64,000 bases of DNA from Centroscyllium fabricii. Taxonomy: Eukaryota. Under the pieces are notes generated by a model. That model did not search any database. It was not told where the DNA came from and saw only the letters and a program-made list of their open reading frames with translations. Made by a program: the position numbers and the translations under genes. How positions within the stretch are numbered: position 1 is the first letter of the stretch; each line of letters begins with the position of its first letter. Location of the stretch: NCBI GenBank assembly GCA_051313645.2, contig JBNRSN020000021.1:8804001-8868000 (forward strand), written 5' to 3'. Shown here one piece after another: positions 8,879 through 63,595 of this stretch.

Positions 8879-9016
8879 AGAAGGGATCGAAAACTTACTG
8901 ATTAGCAGAGCTACCTTGAGTGAGGGAATGATGTGGAGGTGCCGGTGTTGGACTGGGGTGGACAAATGTAAGAAGTCGCACAACACCAGGTTATAGTCCA
9001 ACAGTTTTATTTGAAA

Positions 9017-9053
9017 TCACAAGCTTTCGGAGCGCTGCTCCTTCATCAGGTGA
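9017..9053 (-). ncRNA. minimal type I hammerhead ribozyme
   Basis: ucac-CUGAUGA-a-ggagc(agc)gcucc-GAAA-gc-UU-guga; all core residues intact. Confidence 0.8.
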
Positions 9054-9085
9054 AGTGAAGAGATGCCGGTGCAGCATATATAGTC

Positions 9086-9480
9086 ACGGTGGCATAGTGG
9101 TTAGCACTGTTGCCTTACAGCACTGGAGACCCGGGTTCAAATCCGGCCTCGGGTACTATCTGTGTGGAGTTTGCACATTCTCCCCGTGTCTGCGTGGGTT
9201 TCCTCCGGGTGCTCCGGTTTCCTCCCACAGTCCAAAGATGTGCGGGTTAGGTTGATTGGCCAGGATAAATTGACCCTTAGTGTTAGGGGGATTGAATATG
9301 TGGGGTTACAGGGATTGGGTGGGACATGTGTCTGTGCAGGTTCGAGAGGGATATGGGGACAAGGCAGGGACAGGGTACTGGGTTTGGATGATCAGCCATG
9401 ATCGCATTGAATGCTGGAGCAGGCTCGAAGGTCCGAATGGCCTACTCCTGCTCCTATCTTCTATGTTTCTTCTATGTTTC
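9086..9480 (+). mobile_element. V-SINE, tail B
   Basis: head, V-domain, CR1-B tail. Confidence 0.9.
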
Positions 9481-9699
9481 TAAAACAATGCTTGATGATT
9501 ACAGGTAATTTTTCTAACTGCCCTTTATCACACCTCGGCAGAGAGATAATCACCACAATCAAAGGTGTAAATGGTGTCCAAACAGGTCAGTCAGCAAAAC
9601 ATTCCATCAAAGAACAATGAGGTGGGGTCACAAGTGGTCAAATGTTGCACATGCTGTATGAAAACAAAAAACAAAACAAAGCAATAAAAAATAAAATCA

Positions 9700-10790: not shown

Positions 10791-11389
10791 TCAGGGGAGC
10801 CTCCATACACAGGATACAGTGGACAGAATGCACGAGATAACGGCAATAATGAAAACCTGGCACTATTTGTTCGGGGTAATATTCCTCAGTCCTCTTCTCC
10901 CCCCGCAACACCGCATTAAACACAAATGTCATTTCACGGTCACTTAAAAAAAGAAAGAGGAAAAACGCATGAAGAAAAAGCGTTGTAAAATAACAGGTGG
11001 ATCCGGATAAAACACGCAATTAGTTTGCCAAGAAATGTTTTGCTTCGGTGAAGATTATGCTTCAATTAGCTGATTGTCAAATCTGTTGCACCATGGTAGG
11101 GGAACAAATCATTCTTTGAGCGACACAGCATAAATGAAAGGCAAACAACATTGAGAAAGAACTAATACATCAAAGCGATTAAACTTATTAAAACTACAGC
11201 CAATTATCAGCAGGTGAAGAAATGCAACAGGCGGTTATTCTTGTTTCTTTCTCCTCTGTCCGCCCCCCCCAACACCGGCAACTTTAGCCGGGCAAGTTTT
11301 CAGGGCATGGGTAGTCCACTGGGTACTTTACTTAGGTGGCCATTCTTAGGCGAATTCAGAGAGTGACTACTAGCCATTCCTGCTGTGGA

Positions 11390-12048
11390 GCACGCTCCGG
11401 GCCCTGGGGAGTGTTCCACTGCTCGCTACAAACCCCGGGGAGTGTTCTACTGCATGCTCCGGGCCCCGGGGAGTATTCTAATGCATGCTCCGGGCCCCGG
11501 GGAGTGTTCTACTGCACGCTCTGGGCCCCGGGGAGTATTCTACTGCATGCTCCGGGCCCCGGGGAGTGTTCTACTGCATGCTCGGGGCCCTGGGGAGTGT
11601 TCTACTGCATGCTCCAGGCCCTGGGGAGTGTTCTACTGCATGCTCCGGGCCGCGGGGAGTGTTCTACTACATGCTCCGGGCCCCAGGGAGTGTTCTACTG
11701 CATGCTCCGGGCCGCGGGGAGTGTTCTACTGCCCACTCCGGGCCCCGGGGAGTGTTCTACTGCATGCTCCGGGCCCTGGGGAGTGTTCTACTGCCCACTC
11801 CGGGCCCCGGGGAGTGTTCTACTGCATGCTCCGGGCCCTGGGGAGTGTTCTACTGCATGCTCCGGGCCGCGGGGAGTGTTCTACTGCCCGCTCCGGGCCC
11901 CGGGGAGTGTTCTACTGCCAACTCCGGGCCCTGGGGAGTGTTCTACTGCATGCTCCGGGCCCCGGGGGGTGTTCTGCTGCAGCCTCCGGGCCCCGGAGAG
12001 TGTTCTACTGCACGCTGCGGGCCCCGGGGAGTGTTCTACTGCGTACTC
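11390..12048. repeat. 31-bp minisatellite, ~21 units, inside a Tigger-like MITE whose right TIR ends at 12133
   Basis: unit ccggggagtgttctactgcatgctccgggcc; 31-aa periodicity in three frames; followed by ...cggtgctcaacctg-ta. Confidence 0.92.
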
Positions 12049-12135
12049 CCCCCGAACCTTCAGTGGTTCGGAATTTTCAGTAGTCCGGCACCGGCCTGGC
12101 CCCGAGGGTGCCGAATTAACGGTGCTCAACCTGTA

Positions 12136-12645
12136 CTTGCCTTGGAGGCGGTGCAACAAAGGTTCACTAGATTGATCCCTGGGATGAGAGGGCTGTCCTA
12201 GGATGAGAGATTGTGTAGAATGGGCCGATACTCTCTGGAGTTTAGAAGAATGAGAGGTGATCTCATTGAAACATACAAGATTCTGAAGGGATTGACAGGT
12301 TAGATGCTGAGAGGTTGTTACCCCTGGCTGGAGTGTCTAGAACCAGGGGGCACAGTCTCAGGATAAGGGGTCGGCCATTTAAGACTGAGATGAGGAGGAA
12401 TATCTTCACTCAGAGGGTTGTGAATCTTTGGAATTCTCTGCCCCAGAGGGCTGTGGATGCTGAGTCTTTGAGGATATTCAAGGCTGAGATTGATAGGTTT
12501 TTGGACTCTAGGACAATCAAGGGACATGGCGATCGGGCGGGAAAGTGGAGTTGAGGTTGATGATCAGCCATGATCTTATTGAATGGCGGAGCAGGCTCGA
12601 GGGGCCGTGTGGCCGACTCCTGCTCCTAATTCTTATGTTCTTATG
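12136..12645 (+). mobile_element. CR1 family B 3' end
   Basis: ALEAVQQRFTRLIPG..FTQRVVNLWNSLPQRAV..GDRAGKWS plus tail. Confidence 0.9.
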
Positions 12646-19000: not shown

Positions 19001-19520
19001 AGTCTACCTTATTTAAACTTCTGAAAAATTAAATAGAAGCATCAGGGTTATTTGGCCCATCAAAGCTCCTCTCCCAACTTTTCTATCATAACAACCGACT
19101 GCACTTTGAATGAACCCAAATGTTTTTGATTACTTTGTTGCCTGGATGATTAATCCAAATACATCCCACTCTGAGCAAATACGACCACAAATGATATCTG
19201 TTTTCAATTTCCTGCTCATTAATTTGCATCTGCTGGTCCTGTTGCCCAAAGATCAGCCATGATCTCACTGAATGGCGGAGCAGGCTCGAAGGGCCGAATG
19301 GCCTACTCCTGCTCCTATCTTTATGTTTCTATGTTTCGATGTTTTGTCTCCAGGCAACAATCTGAGCTTTATCTCATCAAGTCCATGTACTATTAGCAAC
19401 TGAACAATGGAAACACCCCAACCACAAATGTAAGATGTGGAGGTGCCGGTGTTGGACTGGGGTGGACAAATGCAAGAAGTCACACAACACCAGCTTATAG
19501 TCCAACAGTTTTATTTGAAA

Positions 19521-19557
19521 TCACAAGCTTTCGGAGCGCTGCTCCTTCCTCAGGCGA
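19521..19557 (-). ncRNA. minimal hammerhead ribozyme
   Basis: ucgc-CUGAGGA-a-ggagc(agc)gcucc-GAAA-gc-UU-guga. Confidence 0.75.
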
Positions 19558-20138
19558 AAGAGAAGTTCATCCAAAGACAGCAGATATACAAGGGAGAGAG
19601 AAATCTAATCTCTCCAACATCTCACTTCAGCAGAGAGACAAACAGAGCAGACAAAGGTGTTTTAACATATTTTAACATATTAATCAGGCATCAGTCTGAG
19701 ATCAATGAGGCACAGTCACAAAGGGTCAAATGTTGCAGTCCTGTGTCTGTGTGAAAACACACAGAATGATTTAAAAAAAAGGATTTTCCTCACAAGACAA
19801 AGACGACTCTAGTCTGGATGACTGTACGTCATTGGCTTCATGTCACGCTACATGTGACCCTGCCTGACGTAGAGTCATCCAGACTAGAGTTGTCTTTGTC
19901 TTGTAAGGAAAATCCTTTTTTTTTAATCATTCTGTGTGTTTTTGCACAGACACAGGACTGCAACATTTGACCCTTTGTGACTGTGCCTCATTGATCTCAG
20001 ACTGATGCCTGATTAATATGTTAAAATATGTTAAAACACCTTTGTCTGCTCTGTTTGTCTCTCTGCTGAAGTGAGATGTGGGAGAGATTAGATTTCTCTC
20101 TCCCTTGTATTTGTGCTGTCTTTGAATCAACTTCTCTT

Positions 20139-20175
20139 TCACCTGACGAAGGAGCAGCACTCCGAAAGCTTGTGA
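20139..20175 (+). ncRNA. minimal hammerhead ribozyme
   Basis: ucac-CUGACGA-a-ggag(cagca)cucc-GAAA-gc-UU-guga. Confidence 0.78.
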
Positions 20176-20277
20176 TTTCAAATAAAACTGTCGGACTATA
20201 ACCTGGTGTTGTGTGACTTCTTACAATTGTAAGAAGTCACACAACACCAGCTTGTAGTCCAACAGCTTTATTTGAAA

Positions 20278-20314
20278 TCACAAGCTTTCAGAGCATTGCT
20301 CCTTCATCAGGTGT
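20278..20314 (-). ncRNA. minimal hammerhead ribozyme
   Basis: acac-CUGAUGA-a-ggagc(aau)gcucu-GAAA-gc-UU-guga. Confidence 0.7.
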
Positions 20315-20470
20315 AAGAGAGATGCATATAAACACAGCATATATAGACGGAGAACAATGTAATCTTTCCAACTGACCTACATCACACCTCAGCAGAGAGA
20401 CATTCATAGCAATCAAAGGTGTGAATGGTGTTTAAACAGATCAGTCAGTCAGGCAGGCACCACCTTAGGA

Positions 20471-21142
20471 AGACACACCCCCATCTTCATCCAAAGGGCT
20501 GAGGTGGAAAGGGTGTCCAGCTTCAAGTTCATCGGGGTCCACATCTCGGAAGATCTCTCCTGGTCACTAAACACCTCCTCTCTGGTTAAAAAGGCCCAAC
20601 AGCGCCTGTACTTCCTAAGGAAGCTGAAGAAAGCCAGGCTGTCATCCGGCATCCTCTCCAACTTCTACAGCTGCACAATAGAAAGCATACTGACAAGCTG
20701 CATCACAGTCTGGTATGGTAATTGCACTATCTCGGACCGGAAAACCCTGCAGCGGGTAGTCAAAACTGCCCAACGAATTACCGGTACACAGCTACCGTCA
20801 ATGGAAAGCATCTACCTCAAACGCTGCTTACGGAGGTCTCTGAACATTATTAAAGACCCCACACACCCCAGCCACAGTCTGTTCACCCCACTGCCCTCCG
20901 GGAGATGCTACAGATCAATTCGCACCCGCACGATTAGATTTCAGAACAGCTTCTTCCCCAGGGCTGTCAGCCTCCTGAACTCTAAAAAGAAACTCCGGTA
21001 CCTGCACACCTGATAATGTACTTTACTGTATGCAATTTGCATGTAATTTATTTGCACTACTCTCGGGAGCGTCGAGTCTTCGTCTCGTTGTATTGTACTA
21101 GTACTCTGCAATGACAATAAAACTTGAATTGAATTGAATTGA
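20471..21142 (+). mobile_element. Rex1/Babar-type LINE 3' part nested in the PLE
   Basis: ERVSSFKFIGVHISEDLSWS..KAQQRLYFLRKL..IESILTSCITVWYG..SFFPRAV; end aatgacaataaa..(ttgaa)n; aggaa on both sides. Confidence 0.9.
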
Positions 21143-21266
21143 GGAAAGGACGTACAACACAGACTACGGTGAGAGACTCTGCCGTCATACCTCTTGCAAA
21201 CTCCTCAACCATCTCGTACACCAGGTCGACAGCAGACGCCGCAACTTCGAAACCAGGATAGAGTCC

Positions 21267-23657
21267 ATGTTCTCAGCCTGTGCTCAGGACACAGCAGACC
21301 AGCTACGAGACACCGCCAAACAGACGAGGCAACTGAACTACACTGCCTACATGCACACCAGGAACAGGAAGCTTGAGAAACTCGGCATCACCACCAGCAG
21401 CAACCAAGCCTCCCCCGGTACCACGGTTGAAACCACAGCGAAGCCCATCGTCAACTTGTCCGACCACACCCTTCAACCAGATGAAATCGAAGTTCTCAGC
21501 CGAAGGCTCAATTTCTGCCCCACCACCAAAATGGACCCCATCGGTCTCACAGCAGACACAGAGGAATTCATCAGGAGAATGAGGCTCCAGGAATTCTTCC
21601 ACAGATCCCAAGATGTCAGCAGCGAAACCAATGAGACAATCAATGATCCTGAACAGCAGACAGAGGGATCCGCAGTGCAGCAACCGAAGAAGAAAGAGTC
21701 AAATTGGACCCCTCCGGAGGGCCGCTGCCCTAAGCTTGACATGTATGCTCAAGCTGTCAGGAGATGCATCAATGCAAGATTCATCAGCTGCACTCACAAG
21801 ACAGTCCAGAATGTCAACCAAGCACAACGCAACATCATCCGCGCTCTCAAGACCAACCGCAACATCGTCATCAAACCGGCAGACAAAGGAGGAGCCATCG
21901 TCATACAGAACAGAATGGACTATTGCAAAGAAGCATACCAACAACTGGACAACCAGGAATACTACAGACAGTTACCTGTAGATCTAACCAAGGAACACAC
22001 CCGCCAACTCAACAGACTGATCAAGACCTTCGCTCCAGACTTTCAGAGCATCCTACGCGCCCTCATCCCACGTAATCCCCACGTGGGAGATTTCAACTGC
22101 CTCCCAAAGATACACAAAGCCAACACACCCAGATGCCCTATCGTATCAGGCAACGGAACCCTGTGTGAGAACCTCTCTGGATACATCGAGGGCATCCTGA
22201 AACCCATCGTATCGGGAACCCCCAGCTTTTGTCGCTACACTACAGACTTCTTACAGAAACTCAGCACCCACGGACCAGTCGAACCAGGAACACTCCTCGC
22301 CACGATGGACGTCTCAGCACTCTACACCAGTATCCCCCACGATGACAGCATCACTGCGACAGCCTCAGTACTCAACACCAACAACAGCCAATCTCCAGAC
22401 GCCATCCTACAACTCATCCACTTCATCCTTGACCACAATGTCTTCACCTTCGACAACCATTTTTTTACACAAACACACGGAACAGCCACGGGGACCAAAT
22501 TCGCACCCCAATACGCCAGCATCTTCATGCACAAGTTCGAGCAAAACTTCTTCACTGCACAGGACCTCCAACCAATGCTATACACCAGACACATCAATGA
22601 TATTTTCCTCCTGTGGACCCACGGCGAAGAATCACTGAAAAGACTACACGATAACATAAACAAGTTCCAGCCCACCATGAAATTCACCATGGACTACTCC
22701 TCAGAATCGGTTTCATTCTTGGACACACGAATCTCCATCAAAGACAGCTACCGTAAGCCCACGGACAACCTCACGATGCTCCACTACTCCAGCTTCCACC
22801 CTAACCACATTAAAGAAGCCATCCCCAATGGACAAGCCCTGCAAATACACAGGATCTGCTCAGATGAGGAGGAACGCGATGGACACTTACAGACACTGAA
22901 AGATGCCCTTGTAAGAACGGAACATGACACTCAACTCATCGATCGACAGTTCCGACGGGCCACAGTGAAAAATCGCATAGACCACCTCAGAAGACAAACA
23001 CGGGACACAACCAACAGAGTACCCTTTGTGGTCCAGTACTTCCCCGGAGCGGAGAAACTGTGCCATGTTCTTCGCAGCTTTCAACATGTCATCGATGATG
23101 ATGAACCCCTCGCTAAGGCCATCCCCACGCCTCCACTACTCGCCTTCAAACAGCCGCCTAACCTCAAACAGACCATCGTTCACAGCAAATTACCCAGCTT
23201 TCACGAGAATAGCGACCATGACACCACACAACCCTGCCACGGCAACCTCTGCAAGACGTGCCAGATCATCAGCACAGATACCATCATCACACGTGAGGAC
23301 ACCACACACCGGGTACATGGTGGTATGTACTCATGTGACTCGGCCAACGTTGTCTACCTCATTCGTTGTAGGAAAGGATGCCCCGGAGCATGGTGCATCG
23401 GCAAGACCATGCAGACAATATGATAACGGATGAATGGACACCGCACAACAATCGCCAGGCAGGGGTGTTCCCTTCTAGTCGGGGAACACTTCAGCAGTCA
23501 AGGACATTCAGCCTCCGATCTTCGGGTAAGCATTCTCCAAGGTGGCCTTCGAGACACAGGACAATGCAAAATTGTCGAGCAGAAACTGATAGCCAAGTTC
23601 CGCACTCATGAGCACGGCCTCAACCGTGATATTGGCTTCATGTCACGCTACATGTAA
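21267..23657 (+). pseudogene. PLE reverse transcriptase - GIY-YIG endonuclease, inactivated
   Basis: IKPADKGG, LPKIHK, MDVSALYTSIPH, GTKFAP, RHIND (degenerate RYIDD), CHGNLCKTC linker, VVYLIRC..CIGKT; in-frame TGA TAA at 23421-23426, then the same frame continues to GLNRD.. Confidence 0.92.
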
Positions 23658-24129
23658 CCCCATCTGACATAGAGTCATCCAGACTCGAGTCGTCTTTGGC
23701 TTGTCCTCACTACACAGATGCGGCTGTACCGACTGCGATTTCCAGCAAGAAAAATCTTTTTTTTTTAATTGTTCTGTGTGGGTTTTCACACAGACCCCAG
23801 ACTGTGCAATATTTGTCCTTTGTGACTCCACTTCATTGTTCCTAGGGTGGTGCCTGCCTGACTGACTAATCTGTTTTAACACCATTCACACCTTTGATTG
23901 CTATGAATGTCTCTCTGCCGAGGTGTGATGAAGGGCAGTTGGAAAGATTACATTGTTCTCCGTCTATATATGCTGTGTCTTTATGCATCTCTCTTACACC
24001 TAATGAAGGAGCAACGCTCCGAAAGCTTGTGATTTCAAATAAAACTGTTGGACTATAACCTGGTCTTGTGTGACTTCTTACATTTGTCCACCCCAGTCCA
24101 ACACAGGCACCTCCACATCACCCCAACTA

Positions 24130-24284
24130 CAGGTTGAGCACCGGTAATCCGGCGCCCGATGGTCCGGCGCCTTCAGTAGTCCGGTACGAATCGAAACCGG
24201 CGGTCTTCAGTTTGCGGAGCAGCCGCTCGGCGTCACTGTTCTACCCACGCGCTCTGGGCCCCGGGGAGTTTTCTACCCGCGCAC
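24130..24284. mobile_element. Tigger-like MITE, left part
   Basis: TIR and two minisatellite-like units; same subfamily as 37938. Confidence 0.8.
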
Positions 24285-44925: not shown

Positions 44926-44979
44926 CTCACAGAACTAGGGGGCATAATCTGTGAATAAGGGGCTGCCCTTTCAAAACTG

Positions 44980-45146
44980 TGATGTGGAGATGCCGGTGTT
45001 GGACTGGGGTGGACAAATGTAAGAAGTCACACAACACCAGGTTATAGTCCAACAGACTTCACCTGACGAAGGAGCAGCGCTCCGAAAGCTTGTGATTTCA
45101 AATAAAACTGTTGGACTATAACCTGGTGTTGTGTGACTTCTTACAT
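44980..45146. mobile_element. 167-bp PLE-1 mini element inserted in a CR1
   Basis: TSD ctttcaaaactg at 44968-44979 and 45147-45158; inverted arms. Confidence 0.9.
45059..45095 (+). ncRNA. minimal hammerhead ribozyme
   Basis: ucac-CUGACGA-a-ggagc(agc)gcucc-GAAA-gc-UU-guga. Confidence 0.8.
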
Positions 45147-45972
45147 CTTTCAAAACTGAGATGAGGAGGAATTTCTTCACTCAGAGGATGGTGAGATGTG
45201 GAATTTGCTGCCTCAGCGAGCTGTGGAAGCTGCGACATTAAATAAATTTAAAACGGAGATAGACAGTTTCCTAGCTGATAAGGGAATAAGTGGTTACGGG
45301 GAGCGGGCAGACAAGTGGACGTGAGTCTAAGTTAGGATCAGCCATGATCCTATTGAATGGCGGAGCAGGCACGAAGGGCCGTCTGGCCTACTGTGGAAAT
45401 ATAGAAAAAAGGGGCAACTATAGATTGCAAGGCTTGCTGGGATATTATACAGTCAAGCAAAATAAGAGCTTGCTTCAGCAACTAATAAGCAGTAAGCAGT
45501 TTTCACCCATGTTGCAATAAATCTAAAGGAAAAAAAGAAAAACAAAACCTGCCACGAAAATGGAGAAGTAATTGTTAAAACTAGACATCGAAACAAGCAA
45601 AGGGTATCCCTTATAAGGAATACTTACTGTTGCTCGGCAGAAACAAGTATTGATTGGATAGCACTGTTAAAGTTATTATTTTAGAAACAGCCTGACACTG
45701 TTGAAATATTGTAGACTCAGTACTTTTACCAGACACAGAAAAAGGGAACCATTACGTAAAAACCCATGATAACTTGTTTGTCTTGCTGTACAAAAATGCA
45801 AAGATTCTTCAAGCTTGTTGGGAGTTGTTCTTTTCTCTCAACCTTTGCTTGAGAGAAGCTCTCCCCTTGGCAAGTAAAAAAGATTAAACTGGTGCTTGAT
45901 TGGATTCTAACTTTGTGTCTGAGTCTTACTCGGTTCGAGATTTCGACACGACTCCTGCTCCAACTTCTTATG

Positions 45973-46091
45973 CAAGAAGTCACACAACACCAGATTATAG
46001 TCCAACGGTTTTATTTTAAATCACAAGCTTTCGGAGCTTCTGCCCCTTCGTCAGGCGAAAGAGAGTCTGGCTTAAAGAACGCACATTTAGG
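45973..46091 (-). mobile_element. PLE-1 mini element with hammerhead at 46021-46058
   Basis: TSD ccaacttcttatg at 45960-45972 and 46092-46104; ucgc-CUGACGA-a-ggggc(agaa)gcucc-GAAA-gc-UU-guga. Confidence 0.85.
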
Positions 46092-46470
46092 CCAACTTCT
46101 TATGTTCTTATTGTACACACTGCAGCCACAGGTGGTGGATGCTTTGGGTCAGTGGTTGAAGTGCCAATAAAAAACAAAACTGAAAGATTGCAAGGAATGG
46201 GATTCTTCCTTAAGGTGTCAACTTTGGTTTGCATATTTACCATCTGCATAATGGAAATGAACAGTAATGGGACAAAATACACCCGAGAGAAGCCTCTTGT
46301 GTCGGTGGCATGTTAAACCCAATCGATCTCTGTGTTTCTCTTGGGATTCAGTGAATAATAATAACTGACCATTCAGCTTTTACAGCATGCCCACTTTACA
46401 GATGAAAAATACCCAGAGGTCACAACTGTAGATTTTGGTCATACAACAACAACAACGTGCATTTCTATTA

Positions 46471-52091: not shown

Positions 52092-52727
52092 GAATTAATT
52101 CACCACTTACCTTACGGCTGCTTTTTACATGTCTAAGTTTTTCACACTTACCCGGACAGAAAATCCTGTAAAAAAACGTAAGTGCAATGCGCACACGCTG
52201 CTGCTCCCGCGCACGCGCTCCACCTCTTCACCCCTTCGTTAAGGGGAACGGAAGTGCCGGTTTCCCGCGCATGCGCCGTGCATGCACGAAACCGGCACTT
52301 TCGTGGGGCTTACGGGTGAGTACCCCGTCCATACTCACGCGTGGAGACCCCAATTTGTTTGTTTTATTGAATTCCTATCATCTTTCCTCAGTCAATAAAA
52401 CATCATGTTTCTTGTATTTATCGCAAACTCGCCTTTATTCCGGTACTTTGCTATTGGCCCAGAAATTGGGGTCTCCACGCGTGAGTACGGACGGGGTACT
52501 CACCCGTAAGCCTCACGAAAGTGCCGGTTTCGTGCATGCACGGCGCATGCGCGGGAAACTGGCACTTCCGTTCCCCTTAACGAAGGGGTGAAGAGGTGGA
52601 GTGCGTGCGCGGGAGCAGCAGCGTGTGCGCATTGCACTTACATTTTTTTACAGGATTTTCTGTCCAGGAAAGTGTGAAAAACTTAGACATGTAAAAAGCA
52701 GCCGTAAGGTAAGTGCTGAATTAATTC
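52092..52727. repeat. 265-bp inverted repeat with 106-bp spacer
   Basis: 52092-52356 is the reverse complement of 52463-52727, few mismatches. Confidence 0.93.
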
Positions 52728-53506
52728 AAATTAAAACACTTTTTCCACAGGTTTATTATTTTTAAATACTGTAATGAAAGGTAAGTTTACTTTTAGCCCC
52801 GTTAGAAAATATAATTCACTTTTCAAAAATTTAAATTGTTTAAAATAGTTATTTCATGTCATTTATAGTTATTTTTAAAATGCGATGTTTTTGAAAAATG
52901 TATTTGAAGTTTCAGTGATGTTTTGGGGCTTGTAGTTTTCATAGTTTTGACAGCATTTCCTGTCAAACTTTATGAATGGAGCATTCTCTGCTCCGATTGG
53001 CTCTCCATGGCCCACGTGATCCCACGCGATCCATCGCACTACCTGCGCCGCTGGGATACGCAAGCACTGCGCGCCGGCAGTTGGAGGAGGCCCAGGACCC
53101 TGTTCCTGGGACTCGGGACAGGGCCACTGGCAAGGCTTGGAAGCTAAGCAGAGCCAGGCCTGGTTAGTACTTGGATGGGTAACCACCAGACAATACCAGG
53201 TGCAGAAAGTCCCGAAAGGAGCCCCGGGGAGGGGCGGTTGGCTGAAGATTGTCGGAATGATGGGAAGATGGAATGGCGGCGCGCACAGACGCAGCGGCTT
53301 TGCTGGACTCTTCGGAGCTTGCAAGATCACATTTCGTTGTTCATGTACTTGTACATTGTATAATGACAATAAAGTTGAATTATTATTATTATTATTATTA
53401 AGGAATGGAATTCCAAGCGGGCCCACCGCTCAACGGCCGGCGCGCAAGTTAAGTGCAGGTTGGAGGCTTGAACCCACGGGAAGCCTCCGACCCGAATTTC
53501 TGGACC
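52456..53506. mobile_element. Harbinger-type MITE (ggcccagaaatt family) containing a 5S SINE
   Basis: ggcccagaaatt / aatttctggacc, TSD att. Confidence 0.8.
53096..53400 (+). mobile_element. 5S-rRNA-derived SINE with Rex1-type tail
   Basis: ggaagctaagcagagccaggcctggttagtacttggatggg..aataccaggtgc resembles 5S nt ~46-110; (tta)n end. Confidence 0.85.
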
Positions 53507-57321: not shown

Positions 57322-58023
57322 CAGGTTGAACTTCGTTGATCCGGCATGGCAACTTCGAACGTCCGGCAATAATTTCCCCGACTGCCCTGTGCATGCGCAA
57401 AATGGCCACCGCGATCGATGCTTCGCCGAATGATCTGCGCATGCGCTGCCGAACGGCGAGCGCATGCGCAGATCATTCACAATGGCCGAGCCGATCCCGA
57501 GCCAAGCCTGGCTGCTGCAAACCTCCGTAAGCCTGGCCACTGCGAGCCTCCGTGAGCCTGGCCGCTGCGAGCCTCCCTGAGCCTGGCCGCTGCGAGCCTC
57601 CGTGAGCCTGGCCGCTGCGAGCCTCCCTGAGCCTGGCCGCTGCGAGCCTCCCTGAGCCTGGCCGCTGCGAGCCTCCGTGAGCCTGGCCGCTGCGAGCCTC
57701 CCTGAGCCTGGCCGCTGTGAGCCTCCGTGAGCCTGGCCGCTGCGAGCCTCCGTGAGCCTGGCCGCTGCGAGCCTCCCTGAGCCTGGCCGCTGCGAGCCTC
57801 CGTGAGCCTGGCCGCTGCGAGCCTCCGTGAGCCTGGCCGCTGCGGGTCTCCCTGAGCCTGGCCGCTGCGGGTCTCCCCGAACGATCAGCGCATACGCAGA
57901 CCAGGCCAGCGGCCATTTTGAATGGTCTGCGCATGCGCGCGACAAAACTTCAATCATTCGTGATTTTCACTTGTCCGGTACGGGCCTGGTCCCGCCTGTG
58001 CTGGATTAACAAACTTCAACCTG
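57322..58023. mobile_element. Tigger-like MITE with an internal minisatellite
   Basis: ta-caggttgaa / ttcaacctg-ta. Confidence 0.85.
57504..57878. repeat. 25-bp minisatellite, ~15 units
   Basis: unit gagcctggccgctgcgagcctcc(g/c)t. Confidence 0.92.
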
Positions 58024-60302: not shown

Positions 60303-60315
60303 AATAAGAATCTTT

Positions 60316-60529
60316 AATGTGGAGGTGCCGGTGTTGGACTGGGGTGGACAAATGCAAGAAGTCACACAACACCATATTATAGTCCAACGGTTTTATTTTA
60401 AATCACAAGCTTTCGGAGCTTCTGCCCCTTCGTCAGGTCTCTTTCACCTGACGAAGGGGCAGAAGCTCCAAAAGCTTGTGATTTAAAATAAAACCGTTGG
60501 ACTATAATCTGGTGTTGTGTGACTTCTTG
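60316..60529. mobile_element. PLE-1 fold-back mini element
   Basis: tail plus two inverted hammerhead regions (the plus copy has GAAA>AAAA). Confidence 0.88.
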
Positions 60530-61719
60530 AATAAGTATCTTATAATTGGCCATTTCAAAAGATGGAGGGGGGGAAAGAGAGTCAGCGCACGCGCACACAA
60601 ATGGCAAGGGCAGGATCTATCTCGGTGTGACGCCTCCATGGTGAATAGCTTACTGTCACTCATTATCTCAGAACACACACAGGTAAGGTTTTGGGAGGTT
60701 GGCTGACACACGTGGCACTGTATCCCAGGATAAAAATCAGTGCCTTCAGAAAAGTGGAGGAAAATTGGGAGGGAGGTGAAGATGAAGAGTGAAGAATCAA
60801 ATCTGCGGAATAAATCCCTTTCACAAAGGTACATTTTTCTATCTATTCCCCCCCGCCCTCTCTCTATCTTACCCAAACAGAAAAGGGAGGTTTAAATGGT
60901 AAAACACCCAAAGCCGTTCGAGGTCACATATAAATGCTCTCACTGCACTATTGGCACACTGGCGTTAACCGGTTTTATAACAGGACAGGGCAAAGCCTGA
61001 GCAACAACAGCCCATACAGGGAGGTGGTGTGTGTGCACGTGTTGAGCTTACATAGGTGACCATCGTCACTTGGAAGCTCTGCCTACCATCCCAATTCTTT
61101 CTGCTCTGAAATATCCTCTTTGTTAGATCCCTCCCTGTAATGGCATTTCAGCTATGCTATTATTATCCAACATTAAAAAAAAAGACAATTAAAAAAAAAA
61201 GTCTGGCACGTTGTCAACCTGTAACAAACCCAGAGATGTTGATTCAAATCTGATCGGATTCTCAACATTTAAGGCAAGCTGGATCAGATAGTTAAAACCT
61301 CCCATAAGGCTTACATTTATCTTTTCATAATCGGATACTAAAACCTGCTCCGTGCATTATGTCTCCTTTAACGTTAATATGGGCTTCTTGGTGAACAGCT
61401 GGAAGATAAAATTACTTTTGCGTTTCAGGGTTGGAGGACTGCGGCTGGATTTGATTCCCATAGCCATCAAGGACTAGGTTCTGGTGTTTTCCATTCCAAT
61501 CTCTTATTTTTGTTCATTCATTCATTTGTATTAATTGTTTGCAGCCGACGATTTTCCTCTTTCTGGCAGCTACTCTCGTGTCTAACTTATCTTGGCACAT
61601 CGCTCTCTGTCTCTGCTGTGTGTTGGCCTTTCCCCATAGGGCTTACTGATTTCCTTAGTATCAAGAAAATTAGTGTAAATCCCATACAGGCATATGGGAT
61701 ACTTTCCTTTATTAGCTGA

Positions 61720-61983
61720 ATGCAAGAAGTCGCACAACACCAGGTTATAGTCCAACAGTTTTATTTGAAATCTCAAGCTTTCGGAGCGCTGCTCCTTCGT
61801 CAGGTGAAGTGAAGAGATGCATATAGGCACAGCGTATATATAGTCAGAGAACAATGCTTCATCTGATGAAGGAGCAGCGCTGTGAAACCTTGTGATTTCA
61901 AATAAAACTGTTGGATTATAACCTGGTGTTGTGTGACTTCTTACATTTGTCCACCCCAGTCCAACACCAGCACCTCCACATCA
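61720..61983. mobile_element. PLE-1 fold-back mini element, followed by V-SINE 61982-62216 (-)
   Basis: inverted arms, tail on the right; TSD ctttattagctga at 61707-61719 and 62228-62240. Confidence 0.87.
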
Positions 61984-62227
61984 TAGAAACATAGAAACTA
62001 GAAGCAGGAGTAGGCCATTCGGACCCTCGAGCCTGCTCCGCCATTCAATGAGATCATGGCTGATCATCCAAACCCAGTACCCCGTCCCTACCCTCTCCCC
62101 ATATCCCTCGATCCCTATCGAGCCTGCACCGACACATATCCCACCCTATCCCCGTAACCCCACATATTTAATCCCCCTAACACTAAGGGTCAATTTATCC
62201 TGGCCAATCAACCTAAACCTATCATGG

Positions 62228-63595
62228 CTTTATTAGCTGAGGCATAGAATATAAGAGCAGGAAGGTTATACTTTAACATTATAAAACATTAGTTGGGCCA
62301 CAGCTAGAGTACTGCATACAGTTCTGGTCACCACATTGCAGAAAGGATATGATTGCACTCGAGGGTGCAGAGGAGATTTACGAGAATGTTGCCAGGACTG
62401 GAAACTTTTGGCTACGAAGAAAGATTGGTTAGGCTGGGGTTGTTTTCTTTGGAACAGAGGAAGCTGAGGGGAGATTTGTTTGAGGTGCATAAAATTATGA
62501 GGGGCCTAGATAGAGCGGGCTGATCTTCTGCCTCAACTCCATTCACTGGCCCTATCGCCATATCCCTTGATGCCCTTACTAGTCAGAAATCTATCGACTT
62601 CTGTTTTGAATATACCCAATGACTGAGCCTCCACCGCCCTCTGGGGTAGAAAATTCCAAAGATTCACCACCCTCTGTGAGAAGAAATTTCTCCTCACCTC
62701 AGTCCTGAATGGCCTACCCTTTATCTTGAGGCTGTGGTCCCTGGTTCTAGACCCCCCTGCTAAGGGAAACATTCTCCGAGCATCCATCCTATCAAGCCCT
62801 GTAATAATTCTGTATGCTTCAATGAGATCCCCTCTCATTCTTCTGAATTCACGAGAATACAGGCCTAGTTTACTCAATCTCTTCTCATACTTGCACTCCC
62901 TCTATGGCAAGTATATCCTTCCTTCGCTAAGGAGACCTAAATTGTACACAGTACTCCAAGTGTGGTCTCCCCAAGGCCCTATATAATTGAAGGAAGAATT
63001 CTTTACTCCTGTACTCAAATCCTCTTGTAATGAAGGCCAGCATACCATTTGCCTTCCTAATGGCTTTCTGCACCTGCACATTCACTTTCAGTGACTCATG
63101 TACAAGGACACCCAGGTCCCTTTGAGCATCTGCATTCCCCAATCTTTCACCATTTAGGAAATACTCTGCCTTTCTGTTTTTTCTACCAAAGTGGATAACT
63201 TCACATTTATCCACATTATATTCCATCTGCCATGTTCGCGCCCACTCACTGAGCCTGTCGAGATCCCCTTGAATCCTCTTCACATCCACTTCGATCTTCA
63301 GTCCTCATATATTCAAAGTTATTGGTAAAAGGATTAGAGGGGAGTTGAGGAGAGCTTTTTTCACCCAGAGGGTGGTGGGGGTCTGGAACTCACTGCCTGA
63401 AAGGGTGGCAGAGGCAGAAACCCTCATTACATTTTAAAAATGCTTGGGATATGCACTTGAAGTGCCATAACCTACAGGCTACGAACCAAGAGCTGAAAAG
63501 TGGGATTAGGCCGGATAGTTTTTTTCCGGCTGGCACAGAAATGATGGGCCAAATGGCTGCCTTATGTGCTGTAAAGTTCTAAGGTTCGAGGATTC
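62228..63595. mobile_element. cluster of CR1 fragments (+ 62228-62515, - 62520-63290, + 63310-63595)
   Basis: ORFs 62533-62877 and 62927-63289 are CR1 ORF2 pieces. Confidence 0.85.

Follow-up and report, generated by a model that had tools for sequence, protein, structure and literature searches.

Short hammerhead-bearing fold-backs in Centroscyllium fabricii as truncated ends of a Penelope-like element, likely formed anew at each insertion

The window analysed here is a stretch of 64,000 nucleotides of Centroscyllium fabricii (assembly GCA_051313645.2, contig JBNRSN020000021.1, positions 8,804,001 to 8,868,000). It contains very short inserts built around a hammerhead motif, most of them folded back on themselves, and these raise the question of whether they are remnants of a longer element or a small element with a lineage of its own. 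The first-pass annotation had left both readings standing, as extreme 5' truncations with inversion or as a non-autonomous ribozyme mini-retroelement. We consider it likely that the inserts derive from an abundant endonuclease-bearing Penelope-like element (PLE), of which they are 3' ends truncated on the 5' side, and that each hairpin arose anew on insertion, when two short cDNAs were joined head to head.

Inserts were found at all four places given by that annotation, 44980, 45973, 60316 (where the insert starts at 60315) and 61720. Each is flanked by a TSD, as had been claimed, of 12, 13, 12 (one mismatch) and 13 bp, respectively. Three of the four are inverted pairs with one tail each, also as described. 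The insert at 45973 had been thought to share the tailed core and has no tail at all. The parts of these inserts are the following, with the source of each call in brackets.

44968-44979, + strand: left TSD, 12 bp, exact (read in the sequence)
44980-45055, - strand: tail-bearing arm, the PLE 3' end (core 51-125) with a tail of ~35 nt (BLAST of the core against the window, arm mapping)
45056-45146, + strand: tailless arm, core 1-89 plus 2 nt of upstream pLTR (BLAST, arm mapping)
45147-45158, + strand: right TSD, 12 bp, exact (read in the sequence)
45960-46104, - strand: solo tailless arm at 45973-46091 with exact 13-bp TSDs at 45960-45972 and 46092-46104 (sequence, BLAST)
60303-60541, no strand assigned: 215-bp fold-back at 60315-60529, tail on the left arm, 7-nt loop (arm mapping)
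61707-62240, no strand assigned: 266-bp fold-back at 61720-61985, tail on the right arm (arm mapping)

The 12-bp TSD of the 215-bp fold-back, with its one mismatch, lies at 60303-60314 and 60530-60541. For the 266-bp fold-back the exact 13-bp copies are at 61707-61719 and 62228-62240, displaced by ~240 bp by a repeat inserted in the tail end. TSD detection at insert edges misses displaced duplications such as this one.

BLAST of the ~125-nt core within the window identified it as the last part of a longer element that ends at 24120, where the core occupies 23997-24120. The longer relatives are:

20223-24120, + strand: long fold-back ending in hammerhead and tail at 24120 (BLAST)
21138-23654, + strand: PLE reading frame, 5'-truncated, with two stops near 23421-23426 (translation, Pfam, motifs)
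19434-20230, no strand assigned: 797-bp fold-back built in the same way, inserted into the 20223-24120 element at its outer end (arm mapping)
8930-9691, - strand: longer pLTR piece with a tail, broken by a short repeat at ~9085-9480 (BLAST)

The long fold-back consists of an inverted tailless arm (20223-20471), an unrelated LINE-like piece and then the PLE body. Its reading frame of 839 codons, read with X at the two stops, has an RVT_1 match at E 1e-4, below the Pfam cut-off, and a DKG motif. A CX4CxxC linker and a GIY-YIG-type endonuclease region with internal cysteines were read by eye; Pfam, run on the same frame with X at the stops, did not call GIY-YIG. Motif definitions for the linker and the endonuclease were taken from the accessible part of PMC8557442. 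By these definitions the predicted protein is that of a C-terminal-endonuclease PLE of Neptune or Nematis type: the translation carries the linker that marks the Neptune clade, a feature common to Nematis in the same source.

The related sequence noted earlier at 8929 and 19434 is present (the first copy at 8930), in both cases as longer pLTR pieces and not as minis, and the different upstream pLTR sequence attributed to the subfamilies was borne out. Sizes within the window run through 119 bp (the solo arm), 167, 215, 266 and 797 bp to ~3.9 kb. Lengths form a continuum from 108 bp to several kb, with the minis at its short end.

Some further features of the window were recorded. The region 19423-24130 is a nested stack, in which the 797-bp fold-back is accompanied by a 12-bp duplication that consists of sequence from the element itself, the LINE-like piece (~20472-21140) interrupts the longer fold-back, and a small inverted-repeat element begins inside the right TSD of the latter. 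The start of the pLTR, just after the stop codon, contains a short internal inverted repeat (23631-23704, 19792-19904), as described for rotifer pLTRs. Elsewhere, tandem arrays of 31-nt and 25-nt units lie inside small inverted-repeat elements (11266-12154 and 57430-57951), and a long inverted repeat at 52092-52727 (265-nt arms, 97%, 106-nt spacer) is unrelated to the PLE core. At 53100-53201 there is a sub-threshold 5S rRNA match (25.7 bits, gathering 38), possibly a 5S-derived repeat head.

The hammerhead of the fold-back at 44980 was placed as follows.

45059-45095, + strand: minimal type-I hammerhead motif, predicted cut between 45091 and 45092 (fit to the motif in the accessible part of PMC4209133)

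This motif has a 4-bp helix I, a 5-bp helix II, an extra A after the first core box and a palindromic helix III. Since an Rfam scan returned no match to the hammerhead families (its miRNA hits were sub-threshold hairpin artefacts), the ribozyme call rests on the fit to the published minimal motif. Of 198 distinct arms, 171 fit that motif in core boxes, helices I and II, extra nucleotide and palindromic helix III. The arms differ mainly at the free core position, in the loop of helix II and at one wobble pair. Pairing is kept in 93.1% of cells (98.1% in helix II), against 26-58% with the partners slid, in the 76 of 138 arms listed. Helix II does vary with its pairing preserved, as the annotation stated; the variation is a one-sided change from A-U to a G-U wobble (26/75 rows), with no compensatory change in it. 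A two-sided change occurs in one cell, and 51 of 500 shuffles reach the covariation score, the copies being too alike for a clear signal.

By structure prediction, the 60315 copy folds into a hairpin (-153 kcal/mol) that buries the motif. For the 44980 copy the motif falls in the hairpin loop, with helices I and II predicted to form. According to the accessible text of PMC4209133, single minimal motifs of this kind fail to cleave alone, and in that of PMC11167929 hammerhead cleavage needed protein. The hammerhead would travel with the pLTR as a passenger. Where the two arms are nearly symmetric, the hairpin is predicted to mask it, leaving stumps that would mostly be dead on arrival.

To describe the layout beyond the window, we sampled 120 stretches of ten kb, 110 at round coordinates of large contigs and 10 beside the window. 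They contain 19 head-to-head pairs and 22 unpaired matches. One tail is present in 18 of these pairs, none in 1 and two in 0. Pair lengths range from 143 to 1924 bp, with 14 of the 19 under 270 bp and the others between 472 and 1924 bp. Tailless arms end at core 65-98, mostly 85-97. Scaling the 10 mini fold-backs found in the 1.1 Mb of the 110 stretches away from the window to a genome of 7.2 Gb gives ~65,000 copies (Poisson range 31,000-120,000); the density and length estimates rest on the 19 pairs. An exact 22-nt word of the core has 129,944 matches, under a filter that keeps about three in four.

As for the TSDs, a flanking direct repeat of at least 11 nt (at most 1 mismatch) was found in 109 of 148 one-tailed pairs and in 4 of 439 shuffled flank pairs, with a mode of 12; these 148 pairs are drawn from all groups, junction-selected ones included. 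Three fold-backs (L114, L123, L119) are inserted into other copies of the same PLE end, which suggests some self-targeting.

The junction between the two arms bears on whether the minis form a lineage. The annotation had proposed comparing recurrent with random junctions, and the outcome is mixed: recurrence is real, while a lineage does not follow from it. The 60316 junction is spanned by 40 of 40 scored matches at 97-100% identity, and a pattern count found it exactly at 36 loci genome-wide. Two hammerheads of the subfamilies concerned lie 0-30 nt apart at 3,175 loci, so that this junction accounts for about 1% of them. Among the first 50 of the 3,175, 47 junction strings are distinct by eye, or 45 once one-base variants are merged. 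In groups unselected by junction, where 51 of 73 pairs could be resolved (the rest being mostly long), 50 of the 51 junctions differ.

If a hairpin unit were transcribed and re-inserted whole by the PLE protein, giving rise to lineages of its own, recurrent junctions of this kind would be found, and the 36 exact copies differ in their flanks and have separate TSDs. Several loci also show the 45015 junction, and one hypermutated fold-back, L309, resembles a whole hairpin RNA that was edited and then copied back. Against such a unit, the two junction forms nearest to that of 60316 comprise 26 distinct copies, of which 12 have the tail on the long arm and 14 on the short arm; at least two marker backgrounds are represented among them. 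The 61720 junction has no twin among 40 scored candidates, the great majority of junctions differ in both sets above (47/50 and 50/51), and the editing scar is seen in only 1 of 153 fold-backs. We regard a self-propagating hairpin element as very unlikely. Two of the 26 copies, L147 and L148 (G000:C1266, ~2 kb apart), have the same junction and the same left flank and are probably a local duplication.

A further recurrent form, the gap -10 junction, occurs in L207, L213, L263, L276 and L309 with different helix II types and both tail orientations, and sits at a short inverted word. Given the varied backgrounds, the two tail orientations and the many distinct junctions, recurrence is what would be expected from many short events with microhomology. 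The truncation reading of the annotation is supported, the core being the PLE 3' end and the junctions diverse. Its mini-retroelement did not hold up: no fixed structure with diagnostic mutations of its own emerged from the 36 of 3,175 loci or from the 51 resolved junctions.

The arms themselves point to how the hairpins form. Concordance between the two arms of one insertion is 58/62, 54/57 and 42/55 at three markers, against shuffled means of 30.7, 28.3 and 13.1, and it lies far above the shuffles at five of seven markers. At the N7 marker the arms agree in 35 of 53 (shuffled maximum 36), and another marker is nearly invariant and does not discriminate. In the 51 resolved pairs the tailless arm is the longer one in 28, the tail arm in 15, and the two are within 3 nt of each other in 8. 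Their joints overlap by 1-5 nt in 29, are blunt in 7 and contain extra bases in 15.

These lengths rule out a tail-primed snap-back as the sole mechanism (tailless arm longer in 28/51). Because such a snap-back cannot lengthen the tailless arm, and the tail cannot come from a strand that starts at the inner site, two separately primed cDNAs would be the simplest reading. The GIY-YIG domain would nick both target strands ~12 nt apart, and the 3' end of each nick would prime reverse transcription, one at the tail end and the other ~35 nt further in. Two start sites have been reported in vitro for a lizard PLE, and these priming sites may correspond to them. Both cDNAs would end prematurely, somewhat more often in the stretch immediately 5' of the hammerhead, and their ends would anneal via 1-5 nt of microhomology, which the overlaps in 29 of 51 joints fit. 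With thousands of short events and a few hundred possible joints, identical junctions would then be bound to recur.

Alternatively, a single cDNA may prime itself, or a long palindrome may form first and lose its unstable centre later, leaving short asymmetric hairpins. The 5' ends of the two arms are correlated (Spearman 0.65, n=51), markers are common to both arms and perfect palindromes with self-complementary centres occur, all of which would agree with such an origin. The accessible part of PMC3846280 interprets junction palindromes as self-priming, and loss of a palindrome centre could yield the same arm asymmetry as dual priming. However, self-priming needs a second step to account for the longer tailless arm in 28 of 51 pairs, and deletion of the centre leaves the peak of junctions at the hammerhead's 5' edge unexplained. 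We judge this route unlikely.

That peak was seen from two anchors. With one, the joint falls in a 28-nt bin inside the hammerhead at 393 loci and in the next bin, just 5' of it, at 1,567. With the other, the first 31-nt bin upstream contains 3,175 loci and the one beyond it 965. Random truncation alone does not account for these counts, which rise and then fall across the bins, unlike a steady decay. Individual arms were also read by eye. Of 100 arms followed past an anchor just upstream of the motif, 11 stop within 5 nt, 12 in the 31 nt after that, and 77 run on. In another 100 arms, ~17 end between core +10 and -7, ~13 further 3', and ~70 run on.

The ribozyme could set these ends directly, by self-cleavage defining the 5' end of the copied RNA. 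Core 33-37 contains 5 of the 54 arm ends from the two least selected groups, ~2x the local background and not significant. By contrast, 0 of 100 arms read by eye begin at the predicted cut, the junction peak lies ~35 nt upstream of it, and cleavage was unnecessary for insertion in vitro in the accessible text of PMC11167929. The hammerhead cut is rejected as the source of 5' ends for that sample of 100 arms, and as a general explanation it seems most improbable.

A pLTR promoter just 5' of the hammerhead offers another source. The minis would then be complete copies of a short RNA started there, which would refine the two-cDNA reading and does not exclude it. The peak lies at that place, 11 of 100 arms stop no more than 5 nt past the anchor, and in one subfamily an initiator-like word is preceded at ~30 nt by a TATA-like box, labels that follow the promoter consensus. 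Similar motifs are described for a rotifer PLE in the accessible part of PMC3846280. On the other hand, no single-base start-site cliff was seen among the 100 arms, with 3 of those 11 arms ending at the candidate start. Short inverted words, which favour joining by microhomology, are abundant in the zone, and many arms stop inside the hammerhead or further 3'. A promoter is possible, and we lean somewhat against it.

One locus departs from the rest. L309 (2743-2949) has 40 substitutions, including 23 A-to-G and 8 T-to-C, while the next highest such count among 153 fold-backs is 5. Compared with one reference arm, its 16 unmirrored changes are all A-to-G, on one physical strand and across both arms, with none on the other strand; 8 further changes are mirrored in the partner arm. 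Its flanks match other copies of their repeats at 90-97% and resemble a small DNA transposon with terminal inverted repeats. A search for sister copies gave 0 matches and also missed L309 itself. The pattern suggests an edited hairpin RNA that was copied back whole, a rare re-copying in one case of 153. These one-strand scars count against the two-cDNA model, because that model cannot make them in one step.

A wider reading would take the stumps as the fossil record of an undescribed PLE integration step, in which both nicks prime on an RNA that often starts at the hammerhead's front edge. The hairpins would occasionally be transcribed, edited as double-stranded RNA and written back whole, seeding MITE-like retroelements. 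We think this combination rather improbable.

Much of this layout has precedents. An inverted 5'-truncated copy with a 30-40-bp tail at one end is described in the accessible parts of PMC8557442, PMC3846280 and PMC8969392. As in the complex insertions of endonuclease-bearing PLEs reported there, the inserts here have a head-to-head inverted copy, a tail at one end, a TSD, heavy 5' truncation and a palindromic joint. TSDs are 8-10 bp in the rotifer PLE passages, whereas the mode here is 12 bp. Unlike the published complex insertions, as far as those passages go, 14 of 19 pairs are under 270 bp and junctions are most frequent at the 5' edge of the hammerhead. The text available of PMC4209133 (Cervera and de la Pena 2014) reports pairs of motifs on opposite strands, 100-700 bp apart. 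The minimal type-I hammerheads of metazoan PLEs in that source have a helix II of 7-8 bp in the Schistosoma families, compared with 5 bp in the putative ribozyme here.

The closest biochemical parallel is Poseidon of Anolis carolinensis (Frangieh et al. 2024, PMC11167929, accessible part). In vitro, its tail is the stretch between two reverse-transcription start sites, both target strands are cut and extended, and the protein is predicted to be a dimer. The PLE here would be alike in the two start sites bounding the tail, the cutting and extension of both strands, the predicted dimer and a hammerhead dispensable for insertion. The PLE of the window differs from Poseidon in its CX2-5CxxC linker of Neptune/Nematis type. 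Joining of two cDNAs is proposed here and has no description in that part of the paper.

Non-LTR retrozymes are likewise short, non-coding, equipped with a type-I hammerhead and derived from PLE pLTRs, and are reported in a chondrichthyan (bioRxiv 10.64898/2026.07.22.740005, accessible part). They are head-to-tail tandems with at least 2 same-strand hammerheads, whereas the inserts here are head to head with one motif per strand. Membership in the retrozymes was rejected on orientation, the window copies being head to head or solo.

A literature search, with subscription papers mostly outside its reach, turned up no PLE paper dealing with a hotspot of junctions, with dual priming or with the editing of hairpins. 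The layout of the inserts is already known for PLEs, and the hotspot and the edited copy alone go beyond the account given in the portions of the PLE literature examined.

Lastly, those portions treat the formation of inverted pLTRs and of the one-sided tail as unsettled. The ~65,000 mini fold-backs of this genome are data on which priming, stopping and joining can be counted. So many near-perfect hairpins could also give double-stranded RNA when transcribed.
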